DNA of 32,000 nucleotides from Methanocaldococcus jannaschii DSM 2661 (GCF_000091665.1 NC_000909.1:593581-625580); one strand, 5' to 3'; positions 8,379 through 29,786 are shown, counted from the stretch's first letter. Notes: generated by a model from the sequence alone, not told the origin. Numbers and translations: made by a program.

Positions 8379-8445
8379 TTAACAGACCCTTGGTATTGGG
8401 TCTCCAATCGGCATATCGACAATTCTCCTACCAACAATATGTCTC
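8379..8445 (-). repeat. Displaced duplicate of the last 19 codons plus stop of hypE (non-translated copy)
   Basis: 8379-8438 aligns without gaps to 8501-8560 at 50/60 identity. It translates to the identical peptide IVGRRIVDMPIGDPIPRVC*. Homology seems to continue about 6 nt further (gtctc) across a 1-nt indel. Confidence 0.9.
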
Positions 8446-8500
8446 GCATGAAACTTTTAGAAAAGTTTCATCAAAACTTTTAAAAATTGCATTATGAATA
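8446..8500 (-). repeat. Family-A palindromic element (short version) between the two hypE 3' end copies
   Basis: Contains the hairpin atgaaactttt-ag-aaaagtttcat (8448-8471) and the conserved core gaaacttttag.aaaagtttcatcaaaac. The same core occurs at 23552-23580 and 25450-25478, and inverted at 25549-25577. Confidence 0.85.
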
Positions 8501-9508
8501 TTAACAAACTCTTGGTATCGGATCGCCAATAGGCATATCCACTATCCTTCTACCAACAATCGTCTCTATTATAACTCCCTTATGTTCTTTTGTAGCATAG
8601 CCAATGATTTCAGCATTCTTTCCTAATGGATGCTCCCTTAAAATCTCTAAGCATCTTTCAGCATCTTCCTTTTTAACTGCCATAACTACCTTTCCTTCAT
8701 TTGCTATAGTTAAAGGGTCTAAGCCAAGAATATCACAAATTGATTGAACTTCATCACTTATTGGGATTTTATCCTCAAATATAGTTATGCCAATATTACT
8801 CTTTTCAGCCATCTCATTTAACGCATCTGCCAAACCTCCTCTTGTAGGGTCTTTCATGGCATTTATTTGAATGCCCTCTTCTAAAACCCTCTCAATTAAT
8901 TTATTTATTGGAGCTACATCTGATTTTATGTTTGTTTCAAAATCAAATCCCTCCCTTGATAATAAAATAGCTAATCCATGCTCTCCTATATTTCCAGAAA
9001 CAATTATTGCATCTCCCTCTTGAACATTACAATCCCTTATTGCCTTTCCCCTATCAACAATCCCTATTCCAGCAGTTGAGATTATGATATCATCAACTCC
9101 ATCAGATACCTTTGTATCTCCTGTTATTATTGCTACTTCAGCCTCTTTAGAAGTTTCGTTTATTGATTTAACTATTTTCTCCAAATCTTCTAAGTTAAAA
9201 CCTTCTGGAATTATTAAAGATAGAGATAGAGCTAATGGCTTAGCTCCCATAACTGCTAAATCATTTACAGTTCCACTAACAGCCAATCTTCCAATATCTC
9301 CACCTGGGAAGAATATTGGTTTAACTGTGTGTCCATCAACAGTAAAAACAATCTCCTTATCACCTATTGGGATAGTTGCTGAATCATCCAAGCTTTCTAA
9401 GCCAATTCCTCCATTAACTGATGTTATCTCCAAATTTTTCAATATTACATCTTTTATAAGCTCCTGCATTACCTTTCCTCCAGCTCCATGCATTCGTGTG
9501 ATTTTCAT
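8501..9508 (-). CDS. hypE: [NiFe]-hydrogenase maturation protein HypE
   Basis: AIR-synthase-like/PurM fold sequence (HGAGGK.., GDTKV, DPTRGG) and the diagnostic C-terminal PRVC. Confidence 0.95.
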   Translation of the reverse strand: MKITRMHGAGGKVMQELIKDVILKNLEITSVNGGIGLESLDDSATIPIGDKEIVFTVDGHTVKPIFFPGGDIGRLAVSGTVNDLAVMGAKPLALSLSLIIPEGFNLEDLEKIVKSINETSKEAEVAIITGDTKVSDGVDDIIISTAGIGIVDRGKAIRDCNVQEGDAIIVSGNIGEHGLAILLSREGFDFETNIKSDVAPINKLIERVLEEGIQINAMKDPTRGGLADALNEMAEKSNIGITIFEDKIPISDEVQSICDILGLDPLTIANEGKVVMAVKKEDAERCLEILREHPLGKNAEIIGYATKEHKGVIIETIVGRRIVDMPIGDPIPRVC

Positions 9509-9616
9509 AATCTCACTCTTTAACTTTTATTGAATACTTAAATATTTTGATATATTTTTTACAATCTTTCAATAAAATTTTAAAACAAAATTAAAAAAAT
9601 GAAGTAAAATTCAAAT

Positions 9617-10609
9617 TTAATCTCCTCTATATTGCATTTTCTCAGCTTCGCTTATTTGAGTTATATCTATTCCTTTCATAGCTTCTCCTAAATTCTTACT
9701 AACTTCAGCAACAATATCAGGCTTATCATAGTTATAAGTAGCTTCAACAATTGCCCTTGCTCTCTCCAATGGATTTTCTGATTTAAATATTCCTGAACCA
9801 ACAAATACTCCATCAGAACCAAGCTGCATCATTAAAGCAGCATCTGCCGGTGTTGCAACCCCACCAGCTGCAAAATTAACTACTGGCAATCTTCCTAATT
9901 TTTTAACTTCTAATAAAACCTCATACAACCCATCAATAATCTCAGCCAGTGTAAAGCCCTCATAGATTGGCTCATTTTCTAAAACAGTTGCTGGCAACCC
10001 CATTCCCTCTCTAACTGTCTTAGCTAATTCTGCATATCTGTTAGCATAGAATTTAGCAACTCCATAAACTTCTTCATCTGTCATTCTCTGCAATTGAGCT
10101 ATAGCTTCATTCATCAATCTCATGTGTCTAACTGCCTCAACTATATTTCCAGTCCCTGCCTCTCCCTTAGTTCTTATCATTGCCGCTCCTTCCCAGATTC
10201 TTCTAACTGCCTCTCCTAAGTTTCTTGCTCCACAGACAAATGGGACGTTAAACTTCTTCTTGTATATGTGGAAGAATGGGTCTGCTTGGGTTAAAACTTC
10301 ACTTTCATCAATCATATCTACTCCAATAGCCTCTAAAACTAAAGCCTCTGTTGTATGTCCAATTCTACACTTAGCCATAACTGGAATTGAGACAGCATCC
10401 ATTATCTCTTCAATTAAAGCTGGGTCTGACATTCTTGCAACTCCACCAGCTGCCCTAATATCCGCAGGAACTCTCTCCAAAGCCATAACTGCAACAGCTC
10501 CAGCCTCTTCGGCTATTTGTGCTTGTTCTACGTTGGTAACATCCATTACAACCCCATGCTTAACCATCTTGGCAAATCCTTTCTTTAATAAGTCAGTTCC
10601 TTTTTTCAT
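9617..10609 (-). CDS. pdxS: Pyridoxal 5'-phosphate synthase, lyase subunit PdxS
   Basis: Highly conserved PdxS/SNZ sequence ([61 protein letters not shown]). Confidence 0.97.
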
Positions 10610-10678
10610 AACTCTCCCTCCATAATCATTGATAAAAGTTTGTTATGAAATTATAGTCTCCAACTATATATGTTTAAT

Positions 10679-11641
10679 TTAGTGATAAATTATTAGCACA
10701 AATATTGCTATAAATAATGTAACCCATAATAAGATTGCATATAGAGTATATTTCCTTGCTTCCTCTTTTTTCCACCATCTATATGGAGAAATTCCATAAG
10801 CTGAGAATATAACAATGGCAGATAAATTTATTGCTATCATATTTATTAAAAATAAAATTAATGCTGAAAAACTCTGCTCAACATAACCAGCCCCTATTAG
10901 CAAACCAAACACAGCCAATGGTGGCAGTAAAGCTATAGCAATCATAACTCCAACAGCAATCGATGAAATATTAGATACCGTTGATAAACTTCCAGCAATC
11001 CCTGCCGATAATGCAATAATGATACTCCAAAAATCTAAGGTAATTCTTGAATGTATCTGTGGATTATCTAAAGATATAGGCAGATAATGCCCAGCAATCA
11101 TTGATAAAATTATAACAAAAATCAGCTCAGCTATTAGGGTCTTTATACTTTTTAATGCCAATTTATAGTCTGCTACTGTAATTGATAGTGATAAAGCTAT
11201 ATTCGGCCCTAATAAAGGAGCTATAATCATTGAAGCTATTAATAAGGCTACATCATCTTTATAAATTCCAGCTATAGCAACAATTGTTGATAATATAAGC
11301 ATTAACATATTTTCTTTACTTAGATTTGCAATATCTGAGGCTATGTTATATAGCTCTTCCCTAATTAGTCTCTCTGGTTCTTCTTTCTCTTCTTCCTCTT
11401 CAATTGGTGGATAAGTCATAGTTGGTTCAAATACAACAACTCTATAATTTGCCCCTCCATACATCTCTTTAAGTTTATCAACAATCTTCTCACTATCTTT
11501 TAATGTTGTTAAAATTTGTATAGTTGAAATCGTCCCATTTGTTTTAACATTAGCCCAAATAACCCCATCCCATTCTCTTATTTCATCAATTCCCATAAAT
11601 AAATGCTTAGGTATATGGCACTCAATAAATCTAAGTTTCAT
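10679..11641 (-). CDS. DUF389-like integral membrane protein with a soluble N-terminal domain
   Basis: About 100 aa soluble N-terminus, an acidic linker (EEEEEKEE), then about 6 predicted TM helices. The family assignment is from memory of similar archaeal proteins. Confidence 0.4.
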   Translation of the reverse strand: MKLRFIECHIPKHLFMGIDEIREWDGVIWANVKTNGTISTIQILTTLKDSEKIVDKLKEMYGGANYRVVVFEPTMTYPPIEEEEEKEEPERLIREELYNIASDIANLSKENMLMLILSTIVAIAGIYKDDVALLIASMIIAPLLGPNIALSLSITVADYKLALKSIKTLIAELIFVIILSMIAGHYLPISLDNPQIHSRITLDFWSIIIALSAGIAGSLSTVSNISSIAVGVMIAIALLPPLAVFGLLIGAGYVEQSFSALILFLINMIAINLSAIVIFSAYGISPYRWWKKEEARKYTLYAILLWVTLFIAIFVLIIYH

Positions 11642-14402: not shown

Positions 14403-17309
14403 TTATCCTTTAATAACTCCTAATGGTCTCATTCTTGCTACTTTTAATGATATTCCAGCTTTATGACATGTATCTGCGACTAAATCAACACTCTTATATG
14501 CCTCTGGTGCTTCCTCTGCCATAACTGCCTTTGAATCACTCATGGCAACGATTCCCATCTCTGCCAATCTTCTTTGTATCTCTTTACCCTTCCACAACTT
14601 TAATGCCTTAGCCCTACTTAGCTTTCTACCGGCTCCATGTGCCGTTGAACCAAACGTCTCTTTCATAGCAATCTCTGTCCCTCTCATTAAGTAAGAGGCG
14701 GTTCCCATATCTCCAGGAATAATAACCGGCTGTCCAACACTCCAATATTCTTTTGGAATTGCCTCATGCTTTGGTGGGAATGCCCTTGTAGCTCCTTTTC
14801 TATGCACTATAACTTTTACCTTCCTTCCATCTATTATGTGTTCTTCTTTCTTAGCTATGTTGTGGGCTACATCATAGACAATATTCATCTCTAAATCCTC
14901 AGCATGTATTTTAAATACTTCTTCAAAGCTCTCTCTAACCCAGTGAGTAATCATCTGTCTATTTGCCCATGCATAGTTTGCTCCACAGCACATTGCTTTA
15001 AAGTAACTCTGCCCTTCTTCTGATTCAAATGGAGCACATGCCAACTGTCTATCTGGAAGTTTTATTCCATAGTTTTTGGCTGCTTTTTCCATAATTCTTA
15101 AATAATCAGTACAGATTTGATGCCCTAAACCTCTTGAACCGGTGTGCACTAAAACAACAACTTGATTTTCCTCTATTCCATATATTTCAGCAGCTTCCTC
15201 ATCAAATACCTTTTCAACATACTGCACTTCTAAGAAGTGGTTTCCACTTCCTAAACTTCCTAATTGAACTCTTCCTCTCTCTTTTGCTTTATCTGAGACA
15301 TAGGAAGCATCTGCATCTTTTAAACAGCCATGTTCTTCAATAAACTCTAAATCTTCCTTCCATCCATAACCCTCTTTAACAGCCCATCTAACTCCTTCCT
15401 CTAATACATCATCCATAACACTTTTGCTGAATTTTAAAATTCCCTTACTTCCCAAACCAGAAGGGACATTTTTGAATAAGGTTTTTATAAGCTCTTTTAT
15501 CTTTGATTGAACTTCTTCTTTTGTTAAATTTGTTCTTATAAGCCTAACTCCACAGTTATGGACAACTATGCTATTTGCTATGAAGTTGTGTTCTTTGCTT
15601 ACTATTCCAACATCATACAATTTTGAATCATAAGAAATTTCTTCAATCTCCTTTATCTTGTCTATTACAAATCCTCCAATAACCCCATATTTTTCAATAA
15701 ATTCCTCAAACTTTGGGAATTTTGTTGAAATTCTTACATCATCTTCATCCAAGTTTTCATATACTGCCCTCTCAATTAATCTTTTGCTTATAAACTCATT
15801 TCTAAATTCATCCATCTTTAACATTTCTGAGACTGTTACTCCTTTTTTATAAAGTTCTTTTGCTCTTTTAATACATTTTTTTCTAATTTCTTTTGCAATA
15901 TCCTTCCTTCTTAAGTATTCATAAGCCAACAATCCAATAACTTTTTTCTCCCCTGAATATTCATAGTTTATTCTTCCTAAGAAGTTCTTTATGCTCTCTT
16001 CCCCAACAATTGCCAGTCTGTATGAAACTCTACCATCTAAAGATTTTATCTCATAAATCATACTTTCAATGTCAAACTCAGCCAATAATAGCTTAATTTC
16101 ATTTAAAAACTCTAAGATATTTTCTTTTAGCTCTTCACTCTTTGACATCGTTAAGTTTATTGGTAATGGTGTGTAGTTTTTAAACACTGCCCTACTTCCA
16201 TCAGCTCCAAACAATCCAGCTAAGAAGTTTCTCTTTACCCATTTTGGAGCTTTCTTTATCCACTCTGGGATTTTGTATATCTGCTCTGTCTTTTTACCAA
16301 TTGGCATTCCCAATTTATGCATGAACAATGCAAATGCCTTTGAAGTTATTTTTATAGAGTTGTCTTCACACAAGCTTGTATATTCATCTCCGTAGGCATT
16401 TCTTATCTCAACTTCCCTCTTCCTTGAATATATTCTTGAAGCTTTTATTCCTAATTTCTCTAAATCTTCTCTAATTTTAATAAGCGTCTCTCTCTTTCCA
16501 TAAAATGCCACATACAACCTCTCTCTATCCCCATTCTCTTTAACTATACTTCCATCTCCAAATGCAAAACCTAACAATCTTGCAATAATACCAATATTTT
16601 TGTTGTCCATTCTAAGTGGTAATAACCCTCTATCTTTTAGATATTTGATAATCTGTTTATCATACTCTGCAAAATCATCCTCATCTAATATTATCTCATC
16701 AGACGGTTCTTCATATTCAACCCCTTCATAAGGATAAACTATTACATCATCCCCTTCTTTTAACATGCCCATTGGTACATAACCGTTTAATGTTAAAACT
16801 GGATGGTCTTTACTTCCCTCTAAAACTCTTCCAGATTCTGTTTTTATCCTTATTATCTTCTCATCTGCATATCTTTCAGAGACAAACAATATGTTTGAAC
16901 TCTTTTCTCCCTCCTCTGTATTATAAATCTTAATATGTAAATCCAATTTTTCTTTTAGTTTTTCCAATTTTATGTAATATCCATCATCCGTTAATATTTT
17001 TGAGTTTGATGTAAGGCAGTTGATATCAAAACCAACCCCTCCAGGGCTTATAACTCCTTCTCTTTGGTCAAAAGCCGCTACCCCGCCAATCGCGAACCCA
17101 TAACCGTAATGCACATCAGGCATAGCTATAGAATACTTATAAATCCCAGGCAAGCATGCAACGTTCGCTATTTGTTCTAAAACCTCTGGTTCTAACTCAT
17201 CTAATAGGATTTCGTTTAAGTAGATTCTTCCAGGAACTCTCATGCAATCTTTGTAATCCTTAGGTAATTCCCATACTACATCGGAGACCCTTTTTAATAC
17301 ATCTTTCAT
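14403..17309 (-). CDS. rtcB: RNA-splicing ligase RtcB, interrupted by an intein (968-aa precursor, about 480-aa mature)
   Basis: RtcB motifs lie on both sides of the insert ([17 protein letters not shown] | [26 protein letters not shown]). Removing residues 98-585 restores the conserved GFDINCGVR junction. Confidence 0.97.
15555..17018 (-). mobile_element. Intein with LAGLIDADG homing-endonuclease domain (488 aa) inside rtcB
   Basis: Starts at Cys98 (CLTSNSKIL) and ends VVHN, followed by the +1 Cys. Block B-like SKDHPV. Two LAGLIDADG motifs ([23 protein letters not shown]). Codon positions were checked against the DNA (tgc at 17018-17016, aac at 15557-15555, tgt at 15554-15552). Confidence 0.93.
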
Positions 17310-17335: not shown

Positions 17336-18115
17336 TTAATGCACACAAATGCCTTTAATAGCTATATCTTTCTTCTTTATGGTATTTATTACCTCATCTA
17401 TGTATCTTTTAAATGCTGTTTTATTGCTAATTATTTCATAACTCTCTGGATAGTTTTGCTCTAAGTAGTGTTTAAACTCTCTGCTTGCCTTTAAATTCAA
17501 AAATTCAAAGTAATAAAAGTTGGTAAAGGGCTTTGTCTCACCTATTATATATTCAACATCAATCAAATCTGGGATTATTGGAGATATAAAGGCATAGTTT
17601 TTAATGCCGTTTTCATAGAGTGTTTTTAAGGCATCTATTCTCTTCTCATTGCTTGGAGAGAACGGCTCAATATCTTTTTTAAGATTTCCTTCAAAGTTGT
17701 TAATGGTTAAGCCAACCTCTATACTGCTGAACTTTTTAAATAAATCCATATCTCTCAAAACCAAATCTGATTTTGTTAGTATAGATAGCTCAGCCCTCTT
17801 ATCAATATTTTTTAAGATATTCCTTGTTAGTTTAAAATCTTTTTCTATCGGTCGATAGGCATCTGAAACACTACTCATATATATTTTTCCTTTGATGTGT
17901 TTGTTTTTAATTAAATCTGGTAGATTTTCTTTAACAACAACCCAACTGCCCCATTTTCCATAATTATACCATTTACACATAAATCTTGCATAGCAGTATT
18001 TACATGCATATTGGCATCCAATATATTGATTTATAACATACTTTGCTCCGGGTATCTTTGTTGGGTTAATAGGTTTTTTAGCTTTAATTTTTATTATTTC
18101 TATTTTACTATTCAT
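17336..18115 (-). CDS. Radical SAM protein (SplB / 'DNA repair photolyase'-like COG1533 type)
   Basis: N-terminal CQYACKYCYA CxxxCxxC cluster; about 260 aa. Confidence 0.6.
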   Translation of the reverse strand: MNSKIEIIKIKAKKPINPTKIPGAKYVINQYIGCQYACKYCYARFMCKWYNYGKWGSWVVVKENLPDLIKNKHIKGKIYMSSVSDAYRPIEKDFKLTRNILKNIDKRAELSILTKSDLVLRDMDLFKKFSSIEVGLTINNFEGNLKKDIEPFSPSNEKRIDALKTLYENGIKNYAFISPIIPDLIDVEYIIGETKPFTNFYYFEFLNLKASREFKHYLEQNYPESYEIISNKTAFKRYIDEVINTIKKKDIAIKGICVH

Positions 18116-18144
18116 TATTAGCCCCTTATAAAGTTTTTGCTTAT

Positions 18145-19257
18145 CTATTTGTTTAAAAATTCCTTAATTCTCTCTAAACCCTCTTTAATGTTTTCATAGG
18201 AGTTGGCATAGCTAATCCTTATATAGTTTTTCCCTTTACTACCAAAGCCTATTCCTGGAGTTAGAGCAACAAATTTCTCCTTCAATAATTTATAGGCAAA
18301 CTCTCTTCCATCTTCTCCAATGTTTGGAAATACATAGTAAGCTCCAATTGGATTATTAACCTCCCATCCAAAATCTTTAACGTATTTTAAAACTAATCTC
18401 CTCCTTCTATCAAATTCTTTTATCATGCTGTTTATTTCTCTTTCAGTTTCTTTCTCAAACGCCTTTAATGCCGCATATTGAGATATGGTTGGAGCAGAGA
18501 TAAATAAATTCTGCTGTAATTTTAAAATTGCTTCAATAATCTCATCGTTAGATATAACATAACCTATTCTCCACCCAGTCATTGCATACAACTTAGAGAA
18601 TCCATTAATTAAAATGGTTTTTTCCAAATTTTCATCAAATTCAATTGCTGAATAGCATTTCCCTTCATAAACTAAGCCATTGTAGATTTCATCAGAGATT
18701 ATATAAGGGATGTTTTCATAGGCAAATTCATAAATCTCTCTATCTATAACTTCTCCCAATGGGTTTGAAGGAGAGTTTATAATTATAGCCTTTGTTTTAT
18801 CAGATAAAGCTTCCTCTAAGCTCTCAACTGTAAAATCACAAAACACTGGCTTAGCTCCTAAGAATCTGATAAAATTCTTATAGCATGGATAGCATGGATT
18901 TTGAATTAAAACCTCATCTCCATCATCTATTATTGAAGATAGAGCAAAAAACAGCCCTAAAGAACTCCCTCCAGTAATGATTATGTTATCTGGGATTATA
19001 TCTGCCTTGTATTTATCTTTATATAGCTCACTAATTTTCTCTCTTAACTCTAAAATACCTCTACTGTCGGTATAGTGTGTTTTTCCTTCTTTTAAAGATT
19101 TAATTCCTTCATCAACAATAGGTTTTGGTGTGTTAAAATCTGGCTCTCCTATCTCTAAGTGTATAACTTTCTTCCCTTCACTCTCTAATTTTTGTGCTAA
19201 TGCTAAAATATCCATAACTTCAAATGATTCAAAATTTAAGAGCCTTTTTGATAGCAT
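18145..19257 (-). CDS. Class I/II PLP-dependent aminotransferase (aspartate aminotransferase-like)
   Basis: NPxNPLG (SPSNPLG), SDEIY and FSKLYAMTGWRIGY (PLP lysine). The track start at 19278 is GTG. The ATG at 19257 follows GGTGAT, so I prefer it. Confidence 0.85.
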   Translation of the reverse strand: MLSKRLLNFESFEVMDILALAQKLESEGKKVIHLEIGEPDFNTPKPIVDEGIKSLKEGKTHYTDSRGILELREKISELYKDKYKADIIPDNIIITGGSSLGLFFALSSIIDDGDEVLIQNPCYPCYKNFIRFLGAKPVFCDFTVESLEEALSDKTKAIIINSPSNPLGEVIDREIYEFAYENIPYIISDEIYNGLVYEGKCYSAIEFDENLEKTILINGFSKLYAMTGWRIGYVISNDEIIEAILKLQQNLFISAPTISQYAALKAFEKETEREINSMIKEFDRRRRLVLKYVKDFGWEVNNPIGAYYVFPNIGEDGREFAYKLLKEKFVALTPGIGFGSKGKNYIRISYANSYENIKEGLERIKEFLNK

Positions 19258-19325: not shown

Positions 19326-20087
19326 ATGATTATTGCTGTGAGTGGAAAAGGTGGAGTTGGAAAGACAGCATTTACAACATTATTAATTAAGGCATTATCT
19401 AAGAAAACAAACAGTATTTTGGTTGTTGATGCAGACCCAGACTCAAATCTACCAGAAACTTTGGGAGTTGAAGTAGAAAAAACTGTTGGAGATATTAGGG
19501 AAGAGCTAAAAAAGTTAGTTGAGAGGGATGAAATTCCAGCAGGAATGACGAAATTAGATTATTTAAGGAGTAAGATTTTTGAAATTTTGGTTGAGACAAA
19601 ATATTATGATTTATTGGTTATGGGAAGGCCTGAAGGTAGTGGATGTTACTGCAGTGTAAATAACTGGCTTAGGCAGATTATAGATAACTTAGCTAAGGAT
19701 TATGAGTTTGTTGTTATAGACACTGAGGCTGGCTTAGAGCATCTCAGCAGAAGAACAACCCAAAATGTTGATGTGATGATTGTTATAACTGATGCATCAA
19801 AGAGAGGTTTAGGGACTGCAAAGAGAATTAAAAAATTAGCTAATGAGTTGGAGGTTAAGTTTAAAGACATCTATGTTGTTGCAAATAAGGTTAAACCAGA
19901 GTATGAAGAGCTAATTGATAACTATGCAAAAGAGCTTGGTTTGAATTTAATTGGGAAGCTTCCTTATAATAAGGAAATAGCTGAGTATGATTTAAAAGGC
20001 ATTCCTTTATGGAATCTTCCAGAAAATAATGAAGTTTATAAAAAAGTTGAGGAAATTGCTGAGAAGATAATTAATAAAAAATTTTAA
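19326..20087 (+). CDS. CooC-type P-loop NTPase (nickel-insertion accessory protein family, MinD/ParA superfamily)
   Basis: Deviant Walker A GKGGVGKT, the CooC-type GSGCYC (CxC) metal motif, and Walker B VVIDTEAG. Confidence 0.8.
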   Translation: MIIAVSGKGGVGKTAFTTLLIKALSKKTNSILVVDADPDSNLPETLGVEVEKTVGDIREELKKLVERDEIPAGMTKLDYLRSKIFEILVETKYYDLLVMGRPEGSGCYCSVNNWLRQIIDNLAKDYEFVVIDTEAGLEHLSRRTTQNVDVMIVITDASKRGLGTAKRIKKLANELEVKFKDIYVVANKVKPEYEELIDNYAKELGLNLIGKLPYNKEIAEYDLKGIPLWNLPENNEVYKKVEEIAEKIINKKF

Positions 20088-21826
20088 GATATTAATTCCA
20101 ATATTTTCTCTAAGATTAATTTTTCTCTAAGCTCTATAAATCTATTAAAGTTCTCTTCAATTTCATCTTTTGATAATGAATCATCGGTATTTCTTAGAAT
20201 TTCAAACATTTCTTCATTTATAAAATGCCCTTTTAGAATTTCTTTAACTTTATTTACTGCTTCATCTTCGGATAATCCTTTATTTTTCTGAATTTCTATC
20301 ATTTCTTTGACATATTTGGATGGTGATTTTTTTGAGATTTTCTTATTGGTTTCATCAAGAATGGGTGTTTTATTTAAAACTGAATCTATATATTCATTGG
20401 ATATGCCTTTATTTCTTAAAAATCCTTTAGGAAATATATGATGGTCTTCAAGCTTATAGTAGGCAATATTATCAGGCTTATAGAAATCCATTGGTTTATT
20501 TTTAAATATCAAATTAAATACTCCCTTATATTTTGAACTTCCAGAACTTTTAACTTTCTTTAAACTGTATGCTCCATATTGTATTTCAATCTTTAAGTTT
20601 TCAACGACTTCTGGAATTTTGTTATTGTTCTCAATCCATTGTGAAACTTCTTTAAAATCTTTCATCATCTTGGATTCTGTAGAACCCGAGTATCTCTCAG
20701 AAAATACTGAACTCCAATACCATTTATTAACTTTGTCCATATCTGGAATATCATGTTTTAAAAAGAATGCCAACATCATCGTTATTGTTGGTGTATATGG
20801 ATTCCATTTTTTAATATCTGCAATTCCATATTCGCTAATATCAAAAATTCTTTGAAATACTTTATTTTCAGCAATATCTACAACTCTATTCCATGATTCA
20901 TCATTTAAAATGGAGTTATCAATTTTAATTAAATCTCTTGACTTGATGCTCATTCCTTTACTTAAAGCTAATGCCTGAATAAACATATAAGGCACTTTTG
21001 TATCCTCAACATCACCTGCAAAATTTTTAATGCGAATGTTATTTTCAAACGCTTCTGCCCACTTTTCCCTTAATTTTATAAATTTATAAAATCTTGCAAC
21101 CAATAAATCGTAAGGCGATAATTTTATACCAGTTTTGTTTATTCTTTCGAATAACACTACAACTTGTTCGGGTTTATCATTGTAAGATAATCCTAAAATT
21201 AGTGTAGGAACTTTATATTCCAATATGTTATGCATATAATTAAATACTTCTTCAGGAAAAATTTCACTAAAATGCTTATACCATATCTTATAAAATTTAT
21301 TTGAATTTGATAAAAATGTTAATGGGAAAAATCTTTTTTCTTTTAATTTTTCTATATCGAAAGAATTATCTTCATTTAATAAAGCTTTATATTGTCTACA
21401 ATCTTTAGACAGGCTAAAAACAGAATTATCAATATCATCTTCAACTAATTTGTTTAAATCTATAAAAAACGCATAAGGTTTTGTAGTATTTTTTAATGGA
21501 AAATTTGGGCTATATATTGCATAAAATAATGACGTTAGTCTTTGCTGACCATCAAGAACCAAAATTCTTGGTTTTCTTAATGTTATATTAGGATTTAATT
21601 CCTCTGCCCCCCTAATGTAGATTGTCCCAAATGGTGGATTTTCAGGATTTATTTCTTGGATTAAAAAAGTTCCTATAAACATATTTTCCAAAAGAGATTT
21701 AATTAGTTCTTCTATATCTTGTCTTGTCCAGACAAAATTTCTCTGAAAATCAGGGAGTGCTACTTCCCCTTCGTATGCTTTTTTTACTAAATCTAAAAGG
21801 TTCTTTGTATCATGACTCAACTCCAT
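20084..21826 (-). CDS. DUF262 (ParB-like NTPase/nuclease) plus DUF1524 (His-Me finger) fusion protein, GmrSD/BrxU-like putative type IV restriction enzyme
   Basis: N-terminal DFQRNFVW and DGQQRLTS motifs (DUF262). C-terminal LEDHHIFPK..N..N (DUF1524-type HNH-like). Its stop overlaps the convergent cooC-like stop by 4 nt. Confidence 0.75.
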   Translation of the reverse strand: MELSHDTKNLLDLVKKAYEGEVALPDFQRNFVWTRQDIEELIKSLLENMFIGTFLIQEINPENPPFGTIYIRGAEELNPNITLRKPRILVLDGQQRLTSLFYAIYSPNFPLKNTTKPYAFFIDLNKLVEDDIDNSVFSLSKDCRQYKALLNEDNSFDIEKLKEKRFFPLTFLSNSNKFYKIWYKHFSEIFPEEVFNYMHNILEYKVPTLILGLSYNDKPEQVVVLFERINKTGIKLSPYDLLVARFYKFIKLREKWAEAFENNIRIKNFAGDVEDTKVPYMFIQALALSKGMSIKSRDLIKIDNSILNDESWNRVVDIAENKVFQRIFDISEYGIADIKKWNPYTPTITMMLAFFLKHDIPDMDKVNKWYWSSVFSERYSGSTESKMMKDFKEVSQWIENNNKIPEVVENLKIEIQYGAYSLKKVKSSGSSKYKGVFNLIFKNKPMDFYKPDNIAYYKLEDHHIFPKGFLRNKGISNEYIDSVLNKTPILDETNKKISKKSPSKYVKEMIEIQKNKGLSEDEAVNKVKEILKGHFINEEMFEILRNTDDSLSKDEIEENFNRFIELREKLILEKILELIS

Positions 21827-22930: not shown

Positions 22931-23042
22931 TATAGTTTCTTGCAAAACATTTTAGAATAAATAATACATTTATGAACACCTTCCAAAAGGAAGGTGTTCA
23001 AACCTTCCTTACGAACTTCAGTAACTTTTGCAAGAAACTATA
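22931..23042. repeat. Family-B palindromic element (MITE-like): perfect 17-bp terminal inverted repeats plus a central GC-rich hairpin
   Basis: TIRs are tatagtttcttgcaaaa (22931-22947) and ttttgcaagaaactata (23026-23042). Central 12-bp stem tgaacaccttcc-aaaa-ggaaggtgttca (22973-23000). A second copy lies at 26378-26484. Confidence 0.85.
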
Positions 23043-23085: not shown

Positions 23086-23118
23086 TAAATGTTTCTAAAA
23101 TTTCAAAGATGTGAAAAA

Positions 23119-23532
23119 ATGAATGTTAAGATAATAGTTGAGTTTATAAAAAAGTTCGCAGAAGAAAATAACTGTAAAAAAATAGCTGAGATTGGAATTG
23201 GATTTAAATTTGATGTTGCAAGAGAATTAAGTAAATATTTCGATTTGATAGCCATAGATATTAATGAAAAAGCTATTGAAAAAGCTAAATTGTTGGGATT
23301 AAATGCTTATAAAGATGATTTATTTAATCCAAATATAAGTTTATATAAAAATATTGATTTAATATATTCCATAAGACCTCCAAGAGATTTACAGCCGTAT
23401 ATTTTAGATTTATCAAAAAAAGTTAATGCAAATTTAATTATAAGACCTCTTTTGAATGAGATGCCAATAAAAGAGCTAAAACTAAAAAACTACAAAGGAG
23501 AAGTGTTTTATATAAAAGAAAAACAAATTTAA
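23119..23532 (+). CDS. UPF0146-family protein (methyltransferase-like Rossmann fold)
   Basis: IAEIGIGFKFDVA..IAIDIN..IYSIRPP resembles the conserved archaeal UPF0146 family. I prefer the start at 23119 (MNVKII) over 23089. Confidence 0.6.
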   Translation: MNVKIIVEFIKKFAEENNCKKIAEIGIGFKFDVARELSKYFDLIAIDINEKAIEKAKLLGLNAYKDDLFNPNISLYKNIDLIYSIRPPRDLQPYILDLSKKVNANLIIRPLLNEMPIKELKLKNYKGEVFYIKEKQI

Positions 23533-23551
23533 GCTTTTAATTTCTTCCTTC
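23529..23551 (-). repeat. Displaced duplicate of the last 6 codons plus stop of rpl39e
   Basis: ttaagcttttaatttcttccttc versus 23627-23649 ttaagccttcaatttcttccttc (21/23 identical). Both encode RKKLKA*. Both mismatches are at wobble positions. Confidence 0.8.
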
Positions 23552-23626
23552 GAAACTTTTAGTAAAAGTTTCATCAAAACTCGTCCATTAAGTTAGGGCT
23601 TTCAGCCCTAATTAATGTCCATTCAC
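23552..23626 (-). repeat. Family-A modular hairpin element (two modules) between the rpl39e 3' end copies
   Basis: Module 1 is gaaacttttagtaaaagtttcatcaaaac (23552-23580). Module 2 is the bulged hairpin ccattaagttagggct-ttc-agccctaattaatg. Module 2 recurs inverted at 29669-29706. Confidence 0.85.
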
Positions 23627-23785
23627 TTAAGCCTTCAATTTCTTCCTTCTCCAGTATCTCATTTTTGGGTGGAATCTAACTCTCCCTCTTGTTTTAACAA
23701 TGACAAACAATGGAACTCTTCTATTCTGCTTTAATGCTTTAGCCAATCTTACCTTCTTTCCTAATGGCTTGTTGCTTCCCATCAT
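23627..23785 (-). CDS. rpl39e: 50S ribosomal protein L39e (52 aa; absent from the ORF track because it is under 60 aa)
   Basis: My reverse-complement translation gives [58 protein letters not shown] Shine-Dalgarno site immediately upstream. The sequence is characteristic of L39e. Confidence 0.9.
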
Positions 23786-25177: not shown

Positions 25178-25425
25178 TTTTGCACCTCTCTTAATTATTT
25201 TTTAATTAATTTATTTTGATTTTCTTTCTAATCTATTTATTTTGTGTTTAAGATTATGAGTTTTTGTAGCATAAAATCTATTTAAGGATATGTAGTTTAA
25301 ACCAATAAAACAAGCTTAGTATTAATTTGATTAGGTTATATTTATATCTTATTATTATCGATAGATACATCTTTAGGTTTAAAATTTAACTCTATAAAAA
25401 AGAGAAGAGAGTTAAATATAAAAAA

Positions 25426-25449
25426 TGGAGCCGGGGGTGAAATTTAAAC
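25426..25449 (-). repeat. Displaced duplicate of the 3' 24 nt of tRNA-Cys (CCA, discriminator, acceptor 3' strand, part of the T arm)
   Basis: tggagccgggggtgaaatttaaac versus 25580-25603 tggagccgggggtgggatttgaac (21/24 identical; the three differences are G-to-A in the displaced copy). Confidence 0.85.
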
Positions 25450-25579
25450 GAAACTTTTAGTAAAAGTTTCATCAAAACGGATGCATTGCTTCCTAACGGA
25501 AGCAATGCCTCTTAATTTACACCTCCGAGCGTAAGCGAGGAGGTGTCAGATTTTGATGAAACTTTCTTAAAGTTTCAAA
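25450..25579 (-). repeat. Family-A element, full-length 130-nt version: two hairpin-forming terminal inverted repeats flanking two GC-rich hairpins
   Basis: Left TIR gaaacttttagtaaaagtttcatcaaaac (25450-25478). Right TIR gattttgatgaaactttcttaaagtttc (25549-25576/7). Internal hairpins are gcattgcttcc-taac-ggaagcaatgc and acacctcc-(12 nt)-ggaggtgt. Confidence 0.9.
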
Positions 25580-25654
25580 TGGAGCCGGGGGTGGGATTTG
25601 AACCCACGTAAGGCGGATCTGCAGTCCGCTGCCTAGCCCCTAGACTACCCCGGC
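25580..25654 (-). tRNA. tRNA-Cys (anticodon GCA), CCA encoded
   Basis: Manual cloverleaf: acceptor GCCGGGG/CCCCGGC, D stem GTCT/AGGC, anticodon stem GCGGA/TCCGC with loop CTGCAGA, variable loop CTTAC, T stem GTGGG/CCCAC with loop TTCAAAT, discriminator U73 (a tRNA-Cys identity element). 75 nt. Confidence 0.93.
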
Positions 25655-25707: not shown

Positions 25708-25717
25708 TTTTATGGTT

Positions 25718-26335
25718 TTAACTTTTATAGTATTTGCTCCACAATATTCTTAAACATTCAATAACCATCCTTTTAGCAATCTCATCTAATGTATATGGTG
25801 TTATTGGCTCAAAATCTCTGATAAATTTCTCAGTTCCTACAACTATATGCCCCTCTTCATCTAAATTTAAAAATTTGGCTGGGCCTTTTGCATATTTGGC
25901 ATCACAAACCTTTATTTTTTCTTCTATACCAAATACCCCATTAGTTCCTATTGTTTTAATTCCTCTCTCTTTACAGTAGTTTATGATTGCCTTTGTTGTT
26001 GGGATTGTATCTCCACCAGCTATACATATCACTGCTACATCTCCCTTAATTAAATGAAGATTATCTTTAGTTATATTTTCTCTAAATGCCTCAACTCTAT
26101 TTCCAAAAAATCTCTTTATAAAATCTACTTTGTATTCCCCAACCTTTCCCCCTAATCTTCTATGGACAATATCATTTTCTTCTATTTTGGCATTATCAAA
26201 AACATAAACTTTTTCTACCCCACCTCTATGAACTTCTAATAAATCAAAAGCTACTCTAACACCCAATCTTCCGCATCCAATTATTGAAACTTCTCCTTTT
26301 GGCTTTAATTTTCTCTCCATCTCTTCAACGTTCAT
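25718..26335 (-). CDS. Rossmann-fold protein, ThiF/MoeB (E1-like) family-like
   Basis: VSIIGCGRLGVRVAFDL..VYVFDNAKIEENDIVHRRL resembles the E1-like GxGxxG / DxDxVExSNLxR pattern. I moved the start to 26335 (MNVEEMERK) because the track's first 36 codons lie inside the family-B repeat. Confidence 0.4.
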   Translation of the reverse strand: MNVEEMERKLKPKGEVSIIGCGRLGVRVAFDLLEVHRGGVEKVYVFDNAKIEENDIVHRRLGGKVGEYKVDFIKRFFGNRVEAFRENITKDNLHLIKGDVAVICIAGGDTIPTTKAIINYCKERGIKTIGTNGVFGIEEKIKVCDAKYAKGPAKFLNLDEEGHIVVGTEKFIRDFEPITPYTLDEIAKRMVIECLRILWSKYYKS

Positions 26336-26377
26336 AAATATCCCATCCAAACAGAACTTTTTTAGTAAGAAAGTATA

Positions 26378-26484
26378 ATAGTTTTTTGCAAAGTTATTAA
26401 AATTTATTAAGGAACATTGAACGCCTTCAAAGAAGGCGTTCATTATTATGCTTTACTAATATAAGACATTTTGCAAAAAACTAT
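26378..26484. repeat. Family-B palindromic element, second copy
   Basis: Perfect 15-bp TIRs atagttttttgcaaa (26378-26392) and tttgcaaaaaactat (26470-26484). Central hairpin tgaacgccttc-aaa-gaaggcgttca (26418-26442). Confidence 0.85.
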
Positions 26485-27787: not shown

Positions 27788-27892
27788 TTACTTTTTACGA
27801 TTTTTATTTTTTTCACGATAATGGACATACAGAACATACAATAATGCATCTATAACTACAATAGCAGTTGATATAATCCACATTTTATCCAT
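27788..27892 (-). CDS. Candidate 34-aa single-pass membrane micro-protein
   Basis: MDKMWIISTAIVVIDALLYVLYVHYREKNKNRKK*, a hydrophobic helix plus a basic tail. GGGAGA Shine-Dalgarno site between it and the upstream stop at 27902. Below the ORF-track cutoff. Confidence 0.3.
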   Translation of the reverse strand: MDKMWIISTAIVVIDALLYVLYVHYREKNKNRKK

Positions 27893-27901
27893 ATTCTCCC
27901 A

Positions 27902-28228
27902 TTATTTTTGTCTTAGATGCTTTTCTATTATACCTTCAAGCTCTTCATCATATCTTAGGTAAATGTCTCTTACAAATATCAATCTAATTATTAATGGAAA
28001 TTTGCTAATTAATCTTATATATTTGTCTTCTATTTTATAGCCTTTAAATTCATCCCATTTATAAAAAGAAAATCCACATTCAATTCCATTCTCATAAATA
28101 TTAATTTTAACATTAATTAAAGAGTCAAAAATATCAAAAAGTGCGAGTTCTTCAAATGCTAAAACTTTCATAATAAAATTTGGAATAAATAAAAAGCTTT
28201 TTCCAAATCTAAATTCCCATAAGTTCAT
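27902..28228 (-). CDS. Small hypothetical protein, paralogue of the C-terminal domain of the 182-aa neighbour
   Basis: ..YKWDEFKGYKIEDKYIRL..IYLRYDEELEGIIEKHL aligns by eye with ..ISWKNIENVKKDDGFIVL..IYLKYDEEIENIIKNQI of 28349-28897. Possibly a bacterial-PH-like domain. Confidence 0.5.
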   Translation of the reverse strand: MNLWEFRFGKSFLFIPNFIMKVLAFEELALFDIFDSLINVKINIYENGIECGFSFYKWDEFKGYKIEDKYIRLISKFPLIIRLIFVRDIYLRYDEELEGIIEKHLRQK

Positions 28229-28352
28229 TTAAGCTTTTTAGTAATTTTCCTCTATTAATTGATAAAAATTTTATAAAATCCCAAAATCCAAAGACAATCA
28301 ATCCCATGAGATAAATTAAAGTTATTGCTAAAATACATAACAAAAAATTCAT
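28209..28352 (-). CDS. Candidate 47-aa membrane micro-protein, translationally coupled to the upstream gene
   Basis: MNFLLCILAITLIYLMGLIVFGFWDFIKFLSINRGKLLKSLNELMGI*. The ATG overlaps the upstream TGA (ATGA at 28349-28352). Its 3' end overlaps the next ORF by 20 nt. Confidence 0.3.
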   Translation of the reverse strand: MNFLLCILAITLIYLMGLIVFGFWDFIKFLSINRGKLLKSLNELMGI

Positions 28353-28897
28353 GCTTTATCCCTAAATTTTTCTATCTGGTTTTTAATGATGTTTTCAATT
28401 TCTTCATCATATTTTAAATAAATTCTTTGAAGTAAGTAAAGTTTTCGTCCTAATATTTTCTTTTTCTTTCCGAACAATACGATAAACCCATCATCTTTTT
28501 TAACATTCTCAATATTTTTCCAACTTATAAATTTATTACTATAATAAATTCCATCATCACACAAATAGACAGAAATTTCTTTGTTAAATGCTTTCCATAT
28601 AATAATCATTGATATAATAATAAGAATTTCTGCAATTATTGAAGTTATTGAAACTGGACAATTATAAACCACATACAATAAAATATTAAAGGAAATTAAA
28701 GCAATAATCATAAATCCAAACAATATAGGCATTGCTTTCTTATCAAACTCTGCCTTTTTACCTTCAATCAAATTAAGATAGTGCATTTTAACTCTTTTAA
28801 AAATCCTACTTTTAATTTTTGGTTGCATATTTGTTATTTTATAGGAGATAAAGCTATTAATTAAAAATGCAATTGCAATAAATAGTATAGACTCCAC
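28349..28897 (-). CDS. Hypothetical membrane protein (about 3 TM helices plus a soluble C-terminal domain)
   Basis: Hydrophobic segments at residues about 1-20, 55-80 and 83-103. The C-terminal domain is paralogous to 27902-28228. Confidence 0.55.
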   Translation of the reverse strand: MESILFIAIAFLINSFISYKITNMQPKIKSRIFKRVKMHYLNLIEGKKAEFDKKAMPILFGFMIIALISFNILLYVVYNCPVSITSIIAEILIIISMIIIWKAFNKEISVYLCDDGIYYSNKFISWKNIENVKKDDGFIVLFGKKKKILGRKLYLLQRIYLKYDEEIENIIKNQIEKFRDKA

Positions 28898-28965
28898 AAT
28901 ACCACCATATATGCATATAAGTTATTATTTATATTGCATTAGATTTATTATTTTTTGGTGATAAA

Positions 28966-29658
28966 ATGGAAGACATTAAAATCAAAGAGATTTTTGAAAA
29001 CATCTATGAAGTTGATTTAGGAGATGGCTTAAAAAGAATAGCAACAAAATCTATTGTTAAGGGAAAAAAAGTATATGATGAAAAAATAATAAAAATTGGA
29101 GATGAAGAGTATAGAATTTGGAATCCAAATAAAAGTAAGTTGGCAGCTGCAATAATTAAAGGTTTAAAGGTTATGCCAATAAAAAGAGATTCAAAAATCT
29201 TATACTTAGGAGCTTCAGCTGGAACTACACCATCTCACGTTGCAGATATTGCTGATAAAGGCATTGTATATGCCATAGAGTATGCACCAAGGATTATGAG
29301 AGAGCTTTTAGATGCATGTGCTGAGAGGGAAAACATAATCCCAATTTTAGGAGATGCAAATAAACCTCAAGAATATGCAAATATTGTTGAAAAGGTAGAT
29401 GTTATCTATGAGGATGTTGCTCAGCCAAATCAAGCGGAGATTTTAATTAAAAATGCTAAGTGGTTTTTAAAGAAAGGCGGTTATGGAATGATAGCAATAA
29501 AGGCAAGGAGTATAGATGTTACAAAAGACCCAAAAGAGATTTTTAAAGAACAAAAAGAAATTTTAGAGGCAGGAGGTTTTAAAATAGTTGATGAGGTAGA
29601 TATTGAGCCGTTTGAAAAAGACCACGTCATGTTTGTAGGTATTTGGGAGGGAAAATAA
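28966..29658 (+). CDS. flpA: Fibrillarin-like rRNA/tRNA 2'-O-methyltransferase
   Basis: YRIWNPNKSKLAAAI, ILYLGASAGTTPSHVADI, VYAIEYAP, DVAQPNQAEI and IAIKARSIDVT are canonical fibrillarin. GGTGA Shine-Dalgarno site upstream. Confidence 0.97.
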   Translation: MEDIKIKEIFENIYEVDLGDGLKRIATKSIVKGKKVYDEKIIKIGDEEYRIWNPNKSKLAAAIIKGLKVMPIKRDSKILYLGASAGTTPSHVADIADKGIVYAIEYAPRIMRELLDACAERENIIPILGDANKPQEYANIVEKVDVIYEDVAQPNQAEILIKNAKWFLKKGGYGMIAIKARSIDVTKDPKEIFKEQKEILEAGGFKIVDEVDIEPFEKDHVMFVGIWEGK

Positions 29659-29742
29659 CATAAAATTGGACATTAATTGGGGCTAAAAGCCCCAACTTAA
29701 TGGACGGGAGGTATCCCAATAGGAGGTCTCCTCCTATGGTTG
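29659..29742 (+). repeat. Modular hairpin element between the two fibrillarin 3' end copies
   Basis: Hairpin 1 is cattaattggggct-aaa-agccccaacttaatg (the same module as at 23584-23620, inverted). Hairpin 2 is ataggagg-tct-cctcctat. Confidence 0.8.
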
Positions 29743-29786
29743 GAGAAAGACCACATATTATGTTTGTTGGAGTTTGGGAAGGATAA
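29743..29786 (+). repeat. Displaced, partly decayed duplicate of the last ~14 codons plus stop of fibrillarin
   Basis: gagaaagaccacatattatgtttgttggagtttgggaaggataa versus 29614-29658 gaaaaagaccacgtcatgtttgtaggtatttgggagggaaaataa. The terminal part reads MFVGVWEG* versus MFVGIWEGK*. There is a 2-nt insertion and a 3-nt deletion. Confidence 0.8.

Follow-up and report, generated by a model that had tools for sequence, protein, structure and literature searches.

In Methanocaldococcus jannaschii DSM 2661, the genes hypE, rpl39e, tRNA-Cys and flpA are each followed by one to four hairpin modules and then by a second copy of their own 3' end. This layout had been claimed in an earlier note on the 32,000-nucleotide stretch analysed here (NC_000909.1:593581-625580, referred to as the window), and it is present at all four places. 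The functional gene end is termed F and the second, displaced copy P. Empty sites in sister genomes were found for all four elements, which are real insertions. Sequence comparison shows P to be the orthologous end of the resident gene, which still adjoins its native downstream flank. The insertion consists of F and the modules, and its F is foreign at hypE and at tRNA-Cys. The empty sites, the resident P and the diverged F therefore support the proposal that a diverged lineage supplied the working end as a replacement allele, for which the divergence of hypE and the leader and trailer of tRNA-Cys are the evidence. We give about half of our credence to an origin by homology-facilitated illegitimate recombination, in which a crossover within the gene is combined with an illegitimate joint at the base of the terminal hairpin.

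Gene ends duplicated around hairpins

The duplications are ~72 nt (hypE), 23 nt (rpl39e), 27 nt (tRNA-Cys) and ~47 nt (flpA). Except for a lysine-rich coding repeat and a CRISPR array of two repeats, these gene-end pairs are the strongest local direct repeats of the window. Across 226 kb of Methanocaldococcus DNA a strong hairpin lies between local direct repeats that are 23 nt or longer in seven cases, three in the window and the others in L153, L002, L056 and L060; the flpA pair was overlooked by the repeat script because of its indels, and counting it makes eight. CRISPR arrays aside, just a few local direct repeats of this length in this DNA have no bracketed hairpin. The sequence between the repeats folds far better than its shuffles at rpl39e (z = -5.5), tRNA-Cys (z = -10.3) and flpA (z = -5.7), and weakly so at hypE (z = -1.8). 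The inserts are 50–130 nt long and contain no ORF.

The direct repeats at the element borders take in the 3' end of the target gene, as the attL and attR of an integrative element would. They are diverged alleles of 12–75 nt rather than short, identical target duplications of fixed length, and the earlier argument from variable length against a fixed staggered cut holds. The outer boundary, previously placed exactly at the gene terminus, is near it, 0 to +10 nt beyond the stop codon or CCA. To call all targets housekeeping genes was an overstatement, as other kinds of target are found. The consistent orientation is borne out: the GTTTC base of module A is flush against P at hypE, rpl39e and tRNA-Cys, and also at the tRNA-Val of L002, in L056 and at one FS406-22 insertion. 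The insertions have a polarity, and their joints lie at the hairpin base for two module types (GTTTC next to the joint in module A, CTATGG in module C). At three joints ATG(C) follows GTTTC; there is no clear common microhomology, and ATG(C) may equally be module sequence.

The hypE locus and synonymous divergence

The hypE element is made up as follows.

8496..8566, minus strand: functional 3' end of hypE (F), the last ~22 codons, stop codon and 5 nt; the imported allele
8446..8495, minus strand: insert core, with an 18-nt spacer (8478-8495), module A hairpin and tail (8450-8477) and the joint gcat (8446-8449)
8374..8445, minus strand: displaced resident end (P), ~72 nt, 83% identical to F, running on into the native bpsA upstream region

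M. fervens, FS406-22 and M. lauensis lack the insert and have a hypE-bpsA gap of 27–33 nt. P differs from FS406-22 at five positions, every one synonymous (91.7% identity; whole gene 92.6%), and its downstream flank is collinear with that genome. Between F and FS406-22 there are 13 differences over the last 73 nt of the gene, or 17.8%, against 6.6% elsewhere in it (Fisher p = 0.02, from 13 differences and with the boundary picked after inspection of the data). The divergence of F is ~2.7 times that of the remaining gene, and it is P, not F, that matches the sister species. The F end also has a unique Met-to-Ile change, absent from the 10 cluster members fetched and from four aligned sister hypE genes. 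In another lineage, L126, the modules behind the same hypE end are of another set and the P is both shorter and decayed, which indicates recurrent, independent events.

Divergence between F and P confined to wobble positions, as described in the earlier note, is confirmed by a test of codon phase, with almost all mismatches at third positions. At hypE 10 of 10 differences are synonymous over 20 codons, an outcome matched by 0 of 20,000 simulations. Both differences at rpl39e are synonymous, and flpA has four synonymous differences and a conservative one, plus indels. Pooled over six F/P pairs, the mismatches number 3, 3 and 24 at first, second and third codon positions. The 66-nt pair of L060 has conservative amino-acid changes and a P with an intact reading frame.

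The tRNA-Cys, rpl39e and flpA loci

At tRNA-Cys the element carries module A at both ends.

25577..25654, minus strand: tRNA-Cys(GCA); its 3' part 25577-25603, from the T-loop to CCA+TTT, is the F copy (27 nt, 89% identical to P)
25450..25576, minus strand: element, with module A (25550-25576), hairpin E (25520-25547), hairpin D (25479-25512) and inverted module A (25450-25478)
25423..25449, minus strand: second copy of the tRNA-Cys 3' end (P), displaced and FS406-22-like, in which three C have become T; the downstream flank is orthologous to the FS406-22 tRNA-Cys trailer

Its two module A copies pair as terminal inverted repeats, and the element is absent from FS406-22, L147/L150 and L148/L154. 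The working tRNA-Cys has a leader insertion of ~15 nt and a trailer of TTT plus module A, both in common with L148/L154, although the S19e and ThiF genes that flank it are nearest to FS406-22. The foreign tract reaches at least ~100 nt upstream of the 27-nt duplication, beyond the entire tRNA.

23627..23649, minus strand: rpl39e functional end (F), 23 nt, 91% identical to P
23552..23626, minus strand: rpl39e element, with module A (23552-23580), a module B hairpin (23580-23620) and a 6-nt spacer
23529..23551, minus strand: rpl39e second copy (P), whose sequence overlaps the stop codon of UPF0146, a convergent gene

The rpl39e element is common to M. jannaschii, M. fervens and FS406-22, and the site is empty in L147/L150. 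In M. fervens and FS406-22 additional hairpins are nested within module A with a duplication of 2–3 nt. In FS406-22 the F and P copies agree at 23 of 23 positions; the two therefore do recombine, and could release circles.

29611..29658, plus strand: flpA functional end (F), encoding ...EKDHVMFVGIWEGK*, of the unusual 230-aa type
29659..29739, plus strand: flpA element, with a 9-nt spacer, module B (29668-29708) and module C (29709-29739)
29740..29786, plus strand: flpA second copy (P), ~47 nt, two indels relative to F, with a 229-aa type end (...MFVGVWEG*), adjoining the hisB upstream region

The flpA P copy has a 2-nt insertion that shifts the frame. FS406-22 is empty here, with a flpA-hisB gap of 55 nt, and is not clearly nearer to F or to P, which leaves a foreign origin of F ambiguous at this locus.

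The hairpin modules

The window has four copies of module A and two of module B, all of them hairpins. Module A starts with one side of a variable stem base of 5 bp, continues through a T-run, loop and A-run to the complementary side of that base, and ends in a conserved AYCAAAA tail; either strand has a U-tract. Fully compensatory stem changes are seen in 33 of its variants against 1 in the control, and the module B stem is kept by compensatory changes among M. jannaschii, M. fervens and FS406-22. Terminal inverted repeats bound the tRNA-Cys element (inverted A...A) and the PTPS element of L146 (module C at both ends), the latter with flanking direct repeats too; the hypE, rpl39e and flpA elements have none. 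One FS406-22 insertion lies inside the 3' end of a gene without any duplication. As the earlier note had suggested, a trans-acting recombinase was sought beside the modules; neither a recombinase nor any other protein family recurs among 236 neighbours of 147 module copies.

Unexpectedly, the main module, A, belongs to a hairpin family with members throughout the archaea; in DPANN its copies lie within the introns of tRNA genes.

Suyama, Lathe and Bork are said to have described in 2005 (FEBS Lett 579:5281, cited in PMC2229807) the MJRE1-3 repeats of M. jannaschii, which are reportedly short, palindromic and multi-copy, mostly extragenic and sometimes fused to coding regions. Rfam contains no MJRE family. 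The modules of the window come from the same organism and are likewise short, palindromic and multi-copy. By this description, rather than by a match to a consensus, they are probably MJRE repeats. To our knowledge the abstract of that report mentions neither gene-end duplications nor a foreign-allele signature.

Origin of the arrangement

How might F, modules and P have come to stand in this order? The elements are clusters of small palindromic modules a few nt past gene termini, some bounded by inverted copies of one module. Under homology-facilitated illegitimate recombination a cell would take up short DNA from a diverged Methanocaldococcus lineage, carrying the 3' part of the same gene and its trailing hairpin modules. 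On the gene side this DNA would enter by ordinary homologous recombination; on the far side, without usable homology, the base of the last hairpin would be joined illegitimately to a point 12–75 nt upstream of the resident end. The imported F would then be in use, and the resident P would be stranded behind the hairpins on its native downstream flank and slowly decay. The hairpin may set the joint by halting exonucleolytic trimming or as a cleavage site, and only joints upstream of the resident end would survive, presumably because they leave both genes intact.

We know of no demonstration of natural DNA uptake, or of this recombination pathway, in Methanocaldococcus, and of no description of the process in archaea or at hairpin repeats. 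No donor allele, with an F-type end and the same modules without P, was found, and this counts against the explanation, as does microhomology at the joints that is weak or ambiguous. Homology-facilitated illegitimate recombination in bacterial natural transformation is discussed in PMC6382021. It likewise combines one homologous anchor with one illegitimate joint, and leads to adjacent insertion and local duplication or deletion in the recipient. What differs here is that every illegitimate joint lies at the base of a hairpin and that a short gene-end duplication results each time.

Alternatively, the captured gene end, spacer and hairpins could form a miniature non-autonomous integrative element, for example a circle released by F/P recombination, that enters the corresponding gene in another lineage through a single crossover, site-specific or Campbell-type, within the captured segment. 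Integrative elements classically leave direct repeats that take in a gene 3' end on either side, as prophage e14 does at icd/icdC of E. coli, where the two ends differ mostly at synonymous sites (PMC13626634). The window elements resemble e14 and the tRNA integrases of archaeal viruses and plasmids in the order of gene with element-borne end, element and displaced end, and in tRNA repeats that start in the T-loop. The two tRNA P copies share their starting point in the T-loop, which looks more site-specific than illegitimate; at these two T-loops (GTTC) the joint is GTTTC/GTT. The foreign tract at hypE is approximately co-extensive with the duplication, as a mini-element predicts, and counts against illegitimate recombination; the identity of F and P at FS406-22 rpl39e would permit release of circles. 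Unlike e14 and the tRNA integrases, these elements are 50–130 nt of hairpins only, with no integrase and no fixed attachment site, and the foreign tract can outrun the repeat, as it does at tRNA-Cys, where it includes the leader. F and P differ over the entire repeat at hypE, L060 and flpA, so that the crossover would always be needed at the extreme left edge. A separate captured segment would also be needed for each of the many target genes, and the FS406-22 insertion without a duplicated end does not fit. The self-contained element of the earlier note is thus unsupported, given the extent of the foreign tract and the lack of an ORF or a recurrent recombinase, and we consider it unlikely.

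MITE-like transposition with long, variable target duplications (12–75 nt), later divergence and occasional gene conversion seems improbable to us. It would accommodate the terminal inverted and flanking direct repeats of the tRNA-Cys and L146 PTPS elements, F = P at FS406-22 rpl39e, and the hairpins nested in module A. Small non-coding repeats with inverted repeats are shared with the YPAL/RU-2 elements of Yersinia, which have target duplications of variable size, 3–26 bp, beside dyad symmetries (PMC2229807). However, the duplications here extend to ~75 nt and their copies are different alleles, and the true TA MITEs of the same window behave otherwise. Neutral decay of P predicts differences over all codon phases, contrary to the third-position excess and the wholly synonymous hypE pair. 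Nor does it account for sister species matching P while F is the more diverged, or for a discordant tRNA-Cys leader outside the repeat.

That the hairpins are selected 3' structures (terminators or RNA stabilisers), with second ends that are incidental or that, for instance, keep a downstream promoter or ribosome-binding site, is very improbable: it suits their place directly past stop codons, the U-tracts on both strands of module A and the compensatory changes of both stems, but leaves the duplications, foreign alleles and presence/absence polymorphism unexplained, is at odds with the module A copies in tRNA introns, since termination there would do harm, and sits poorly with P copies that decay (the flpA frameshift, the tRNA-Cys C-to-T changes, the degenerate P copies of L126).

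Like the bacterial extragenic palindromes REP/BIME, the modules are short imperfect palindromes clustered in alternating orientation just 3' of genes, with a conserved unpaired tail by the stem. No RAYT-like transposase came to light here, and we know of no REPs with duplicated gene ends on their flanks.

Module A might be the terminal hairpin of a non-autonomous mobile family of archaea and some bacteria, moved by a putative trans-acting activity that drives gene-end capture and replacement between lineages. Its base would be flush with RNA-processing boundaries, namely the tRNA 37/38 intron site, 5' end and 3' end in DPANN and other archaea, and protein-gene termini in Methanocaldococcus. 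We regard this as a doubtful proposal; if true, it would be a new mode of intron gain and gene-terminus exchange.

Elements with TA target duplications

The earlier count of four of four elements with this layout stands for the gene-end class and is too strong for the window, which also contains two ordinary MITEs, each flanked by a TA target-site duplication.

22933..23040 (unstranded): element of ~108 nt in a divergent 5' intergenic region, bounded by terminal inverted repeats (TAGTTTCTTGCAAAA...) and a duplicated TA target, with a hairpin at its centre
26377..26477 (unstranded): second copy of this family, between a ThiF-like gene and nop5

Both are roughly 100 nt long, 5' intergenic and without a gene-end copy, and the one at 22933..23040 is a precise insertion relative to FS406-22.

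Gene ends duplicated on either side of hairpin modules

At four genes of the window, hypE, rpl39e, the tRNA-Cys gene and flpA, the working gene end (F) is followed by a cluster of hairpin modules and then by a second, displaced copy of the gene end (P). If a lysine-rich coding repeat and a CRISPR remnant of two repeats are set aside, no local direct repeat of the window is stronger than these four. Across 226 kb of Methanocaldococcus DNA, nearly every local direct repeat of 23 nt or more flanks a hairpin cluster or belongs to a CRISPR array.

Genes (protein families from Pfam) and gene-end repeats of the window
7169-8344, - strand, BpsA-like
8501-9508, - strand, HypE of M. jannaschii (MJ0676), AIRS domains
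23089-23532, + strand, UPF0146
23627-23785, - strand, L39e (rpl39e)
25580-25654, - strand, single tRNA-Cys
28966-29658, + strand, fibrillarin (flpA)
29826-30419, + strand, HisB
within the window, S19e gene
hypE repeat, F 8496-8566, P 8374-8445, about 72 nt, 83% identical
rpl39e repeat, F 23627-23649, P 23529-23551, 23 nt, 2 mismatches
tRNA-Cys repeat, F 25577-25603, P 25423-25449, 27 nt, 3 mismatches
flpA repeat, F 29611-29658, P 29740-29786, about 47 nt, 2-nt insertion and a missing codon

The earlier note had found this layout in four of four elements, with the duplication ending exactly on the terminus of a housekeeping gene. The layout stands at all four target genes, but not as four of four, as two more hairpin repeats in the window have no gene-end copy. 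The outer end of the duplication lies near the terminus, not exactly on it (+5 nt at hypE, +3 nt at tRNA-Cys, 0 at rpl39e and flpA); at a tRNA-Val gene of one MAG it is at +10 nt. Nor are all targets housekeeping genes: in other lineages the layout is also seen behind genes for a hexapeptide transferase, PTPS and a chorismate-lyase-like protein. Within the rpl39e P lies the stop codon of UPF0146, the convergent gene, whose ORF is 147 aa in the window vs 134–138 aa in relatives, so the rpl39e element altered the C-terminus of the neighbouring gene.

The hairpin repeats at 22933-23040 and 26377-26477 are members of a separate, conventional family, about 100 nt long with terminal inverted repeats and a central hairpin. 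They are precise insertions relative to the sister genome FS406-22, with a TA target duplication, and lie in divergent 5' intergenic regions without a gene-end copy.

Copies of the TA-duplication family
window, 22933-23040 and 26377-26477
L146 (compared locus), 1960-2075 and 18040-18160
L151 (FS406-22), about 20230-20390

This family has TATAGTTnTGCAAAA-type ends and a central GGAAGG hairpin, is polymorphic between M. jannaschii and FS406-22, and is found mostly in 5' intergenic regions or adjoining tRNA genes. A ThiF-like ORF (25718-26443, - strand) is called at 241 aa vs 200–209 aa in relatives; its apparent N-terminal extension overlaps the inserted MITE hairpin, so the real start is probably further downstream.

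The hairpin modules

The hairpin repeats probably belong to the MJRE family that Suyama et al. (2005) described in M. jannaschii, a lead given by the organism and the type of element. Module A, GAAACTTTT-loop-AAAAGTTTCATCAAAAC, has four copies in the window, and module B, GGACATTAATTNGGGCT...AACTTAATGGACG, has two. Module C, CCATAGGAGG...CCTCCTATGG, makes up part of the flpA element and also occurs behind hypE of another lineage and in strain 28A. The tRNA-Cys element has two further GC-rich hairpins besides its two module A copies, which pair with each other as terminal inverted repeats. Compared with shuffled sequences, folding is much stronger in three of the four inter-repeat segments (z = -5.5, -10.3 and -5.7). 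Rfam, run on the window and 20 loci, returned only tRNA and CRISPR repeats and no family for any module. Module A is present in 14 viral contigs; module B was found in none.

At the rpl39e locus of M. fervens (L130:250-330) and FS406-22 (L153:3950-4020), extra small hairpins are nested in the module A stem. One is cgaagcgttagcttcgg; the second is AT-rich and differs between the two genomes. The nested hairpins come with a duplication of 2–3 nt. Their position within the stem suggests that individual hairpins insert into one another.

Empty sites in sister genomes

Empty sites were found in sister genomes at hypE, flpA, tRNA-Cys and rpl39e, and the elements are therefore insertions. The gap between hypE and the next gene is 27–33 nt in M. 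fervens, FS406-22 and M. lauensis. In FS406-22 the flpA-hisB spacer is 55 nt and empty, and no module stands behind tRNA-Cys. At hypE, tRNA-Cys and flpA, BLAST of the window against FS406-22 maps both F and P to one segment. The rpl39e element is common to M. jannaschii, M. fervens and FS406-22 and is older than the others; a more distant lineage (L147/L150) has empty sites at both rpl39e and tRNA-Cys. An exact look-up of L39e returned identical arrangements only, a metagenome scan with tRNA-Cys gave three contigs only, and synteny was lacking at the nop5-anchored loci of strain 28A and M. fervens. In L126, a metagenomic relative with a 97% identical HypE, another module set and a shorter, degenerate P follow hypE, which indicates that the same terminus was hit independently.

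The displaced copy as the resident gene end

Which of the two copies is the resident one? Divergence between F and P is almost wholly synonymous, as the earlier note had observed: all 10 differences over 20 codons in hypE, both in rpl39e, and four plus one Ile/Val in flpA. Mismatches pooled from six F/P pairs, including pairs of other lineages, number 3, 3 and 24 over the three codon phases. Duplication followed by neutral decay of P would place most differences in P and over all codon phases. The divergence is confined to wobble positions because F and P are alleles from different lineages, each under selection while they diverged.

The hypE P and its downstream flank are collinear with the gene end and flank of FS406-22. 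P itself is 91.7% identical to the FS406-22 end, with five differences, all synonymous (whole gene 92.6%). The hypE F, which reads AGA AGG ATA GTG...GGC GAT CCG followed by TATTCATAATGCAATTTTTAAAA and module A, is only 83% identical to each available lineage. Between M. jannaschii and FS406-22, hypE differs at 6.6% of positions 1–935 and 17.8% of positions 936–1008 (Fisher p = 0.02, with the boundary picked post hoc). A Met-to-Ile change in the F stretch is absent from all 10 cluster members fetched and all four sister hypE genes aligned. The 'IIET' unique to the imported end occurs in no cluster member fetched (n = 10), so no hypE donor was identified.

At tRNA-Cys, P together with its trailer shows homology to the trailer in FS406-22. 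A leader insertion of about 15 nt and the trailer TTT+GAAACTTTAAGAA mark the working gene; both features are common to lineage L148/L154 and missing in FS406-22 and the outgroup L150. Of the flanks, both the S19e gene (95.5% vs 92.8%) and the ThiF side are closest to FS406-22. At flpA, the test of F vs P origin by sequence is ambiguous; P has the native position before hisB and encodes the '...WEG*' typical of relatives, and F encodes an unusual '...WEGK*'. On these sequence comparisons P is the displaced resident end, and the imported DNA comprises the end of F together with the modules. The proposal of a replacement gene end from another lineage is thus confirmed on the hypE and tRNA-Cys evidence.

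Joints and origin of the elements

The foreign tract at tRNA-Cys starts upstream of the tRNA gene, no less than about 100 nt outside the 27-nt repeat, and that at hypE starts up to about 12 nt beyond P. Differences between F and P span the whole length in hypE, flpA and L060, one of the compared loci. On the right, the joint coincides exactly in every case with the base of the terminal hairpin: GTTTC| for module A, at seven joints from Methanocaldococcus, and CTATGG| for module C. The favoured origin is therefore acquisition of an 'occupied' allele by recombination, with an illegitimate joint at the hairpin base. Recombination would bring in the allele from another lineage through homologous exchange within or upstream of the gene end, and an illegitimate joint would link the hairpin base to a site 12–75 nt upstream of the resident terminus. 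The hairpin may set this joint by stopping the trimming of a non-homologous tail, or by being cleaved. The survivors are likely to be only those joints that keep the gene and the upstream region of the downstream gene intact.

Self-contained, autonomous-like mini-integrative elements, as first proposed, are not supported: the tRNA-Cys tract exceeds the repeat, F and P differ throughout, and there is no integrase. That model may hold for some loci but fits the data less well. The same holds for transposition with long, variable target duplications; Yersinia YPAL elements have target duplications of variable size (3–26 bp) beside dyad symmetries (PMC2229807). An RNA-mediated retro-type copy of the transcript 3' end leaves the foreign allele unexplained, and simple tandem duplication would yield two hairpin sets.

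Modules can also arrive without a gene-end copy. A Methyltransf_30 gene of FS406-22 that is orthologous to window 2303-3373 has a cluster of modules A and D (L151, about 18850-19000; window site about 2323) inserted 21 nt short of its stop codon. The last seven residues are replaced by five new ones and 4 nt of target are deleted, with no duplicated gene end. At rpl39e of FS406-22, F and P are identical, so the copies do interact by gene conversion.

Comparison with known systems

The favoured pathway is of the same type as homology-facilitated illegitimate recombination in bacteria, with one homologous anchor and one illegitimate joint (PMC6382021). Prophage e14 at icd/icdC carries a gene end of its own, whose differences are mainly synonymous (PMC13626634). 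That architecture, like that of tRNA-targeting integrative elements, resembles F and P, but the M. jannaschii elements have neither an integrase nor a fixed attachment site. The MJRE reference, Suyama et al. 2005, is cited in PMC2229807. Hairpin repeats flanked by diverged gene-end alleles were not found described in the literature.

If this reading is true, the role of short hairpin repeats in a hyperthermophilic archaeon goes beyond that of terminators or passive 'junk', as foreign DNA enters the chromosome at joints that they mark and may even direct. Displaced gene ends would be datable fossils of inter-lineage gene flow, and the F-modules-P structure, with its hairpin-defined joint, a record readable from sequence of how often DNA is exchanged in Methanocaldococcus and in what tract lengths. 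It would also account for unusual divergence at the 3' ends of conserved genes and offer a concrete substrate design for the published M. jannaschii genetic system (PMC6616113).

Module A beyond Methanocaldococcus

Species-representative genomes were scanned for module A; few Methanocaldococcus copies were among the matches listed. The listed matches were mostly from DPANN (Micrarchaeota, Woesearchaeota, Aenigmatarchaeota, Nanoarchaeota and Iainarchaeota), the others from Altiarchaeota, Thermococcus, Methanosarcinales and bacterial MAGs (Defluviitaleaceae, Acutalibacter). Of the copies, at least 15 are within tRNA genes; each of these begins exactly at the 37/38 intron site and is in sense orientation. 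At least six begin 1–3 nt past a tRNA 3' end, and at least three others, inverted, stop 2 nt short of a tRNA 5' end; all of these adjoining copies have the hairpin base towards the tRNA. Module A in DPANN tRNA introns and flush with tRNA ends may bear on archaeal tRNA intron gain. At least 33 variant copies have fully compensatory stem-base changes with the AYCAAAA tail kept, against one in the control.

Examples of module A (28-nt hairpin and tail) at compared loci
L003:4443-4472
L008:6236-6263
L013:4674-4700
L043:571-598
L110:840-867

A search for a recombinase found no recurrent protein family beside module A copies among the matches listed. Several identities for module A were rejected: a k-turn or C/D box (the tRNA-intron copies have UGAUGA on the wrong strand, and a conserved CUGA partner is lacking), a hammerhead core (stem II is lacking), a BRE/TATA promoter (the spacing to tRNA 5' ends is wrong) and the end of an IS200/IS605 or rolling-circle element (neither TnpA, TnpB nor Rep is encoded next to it).

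In L106 (7150-7340), an archaeal MAG, module A is part of a triple tandem repeat of upstream region, the first 10 nt or so of the tRNA and module A, before an intact tRNA. This is a 5'-end counterpart of the gene-end duplications. Defluviitaleaceae (termite-gut) and some chicken-gut Clostridia MAGs have many composite repeats of a GC-rich hairpin, module A and a terminator-like hairpin (Defluviitaleaceae MAGs L001, L009, L015, L025, L033, L037, L041, L044-L046, L081, L083 and others), so a bacterial repeat shares the archaeal module.

Other features of the window

A mini CRISPR array of two repeats (Rfam CRISPR-DR39; 30574-30673) lies in a 677-nt stretch 3' of hisB, vs 16 nt only after hisB in FS406-22. 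FS406-22 lacks, at the syntenic positions, the window's genes for a GmrSD-type restriction endonuclease (20084-21826, - strand) and a radical-SAM protein (17336-18115, - strand); the distant lineage L147 does have the GmrSD gene. The number of LAGLIDADG inteins in RtcB (14403-17309, - strand; L151:2232-5141; L152:255-6026) varies: M. jannaschii and FS406-22 each have one, M. lauensis (1923 aa) apparently has two, and the 480-aa protein of M. fervens has none.
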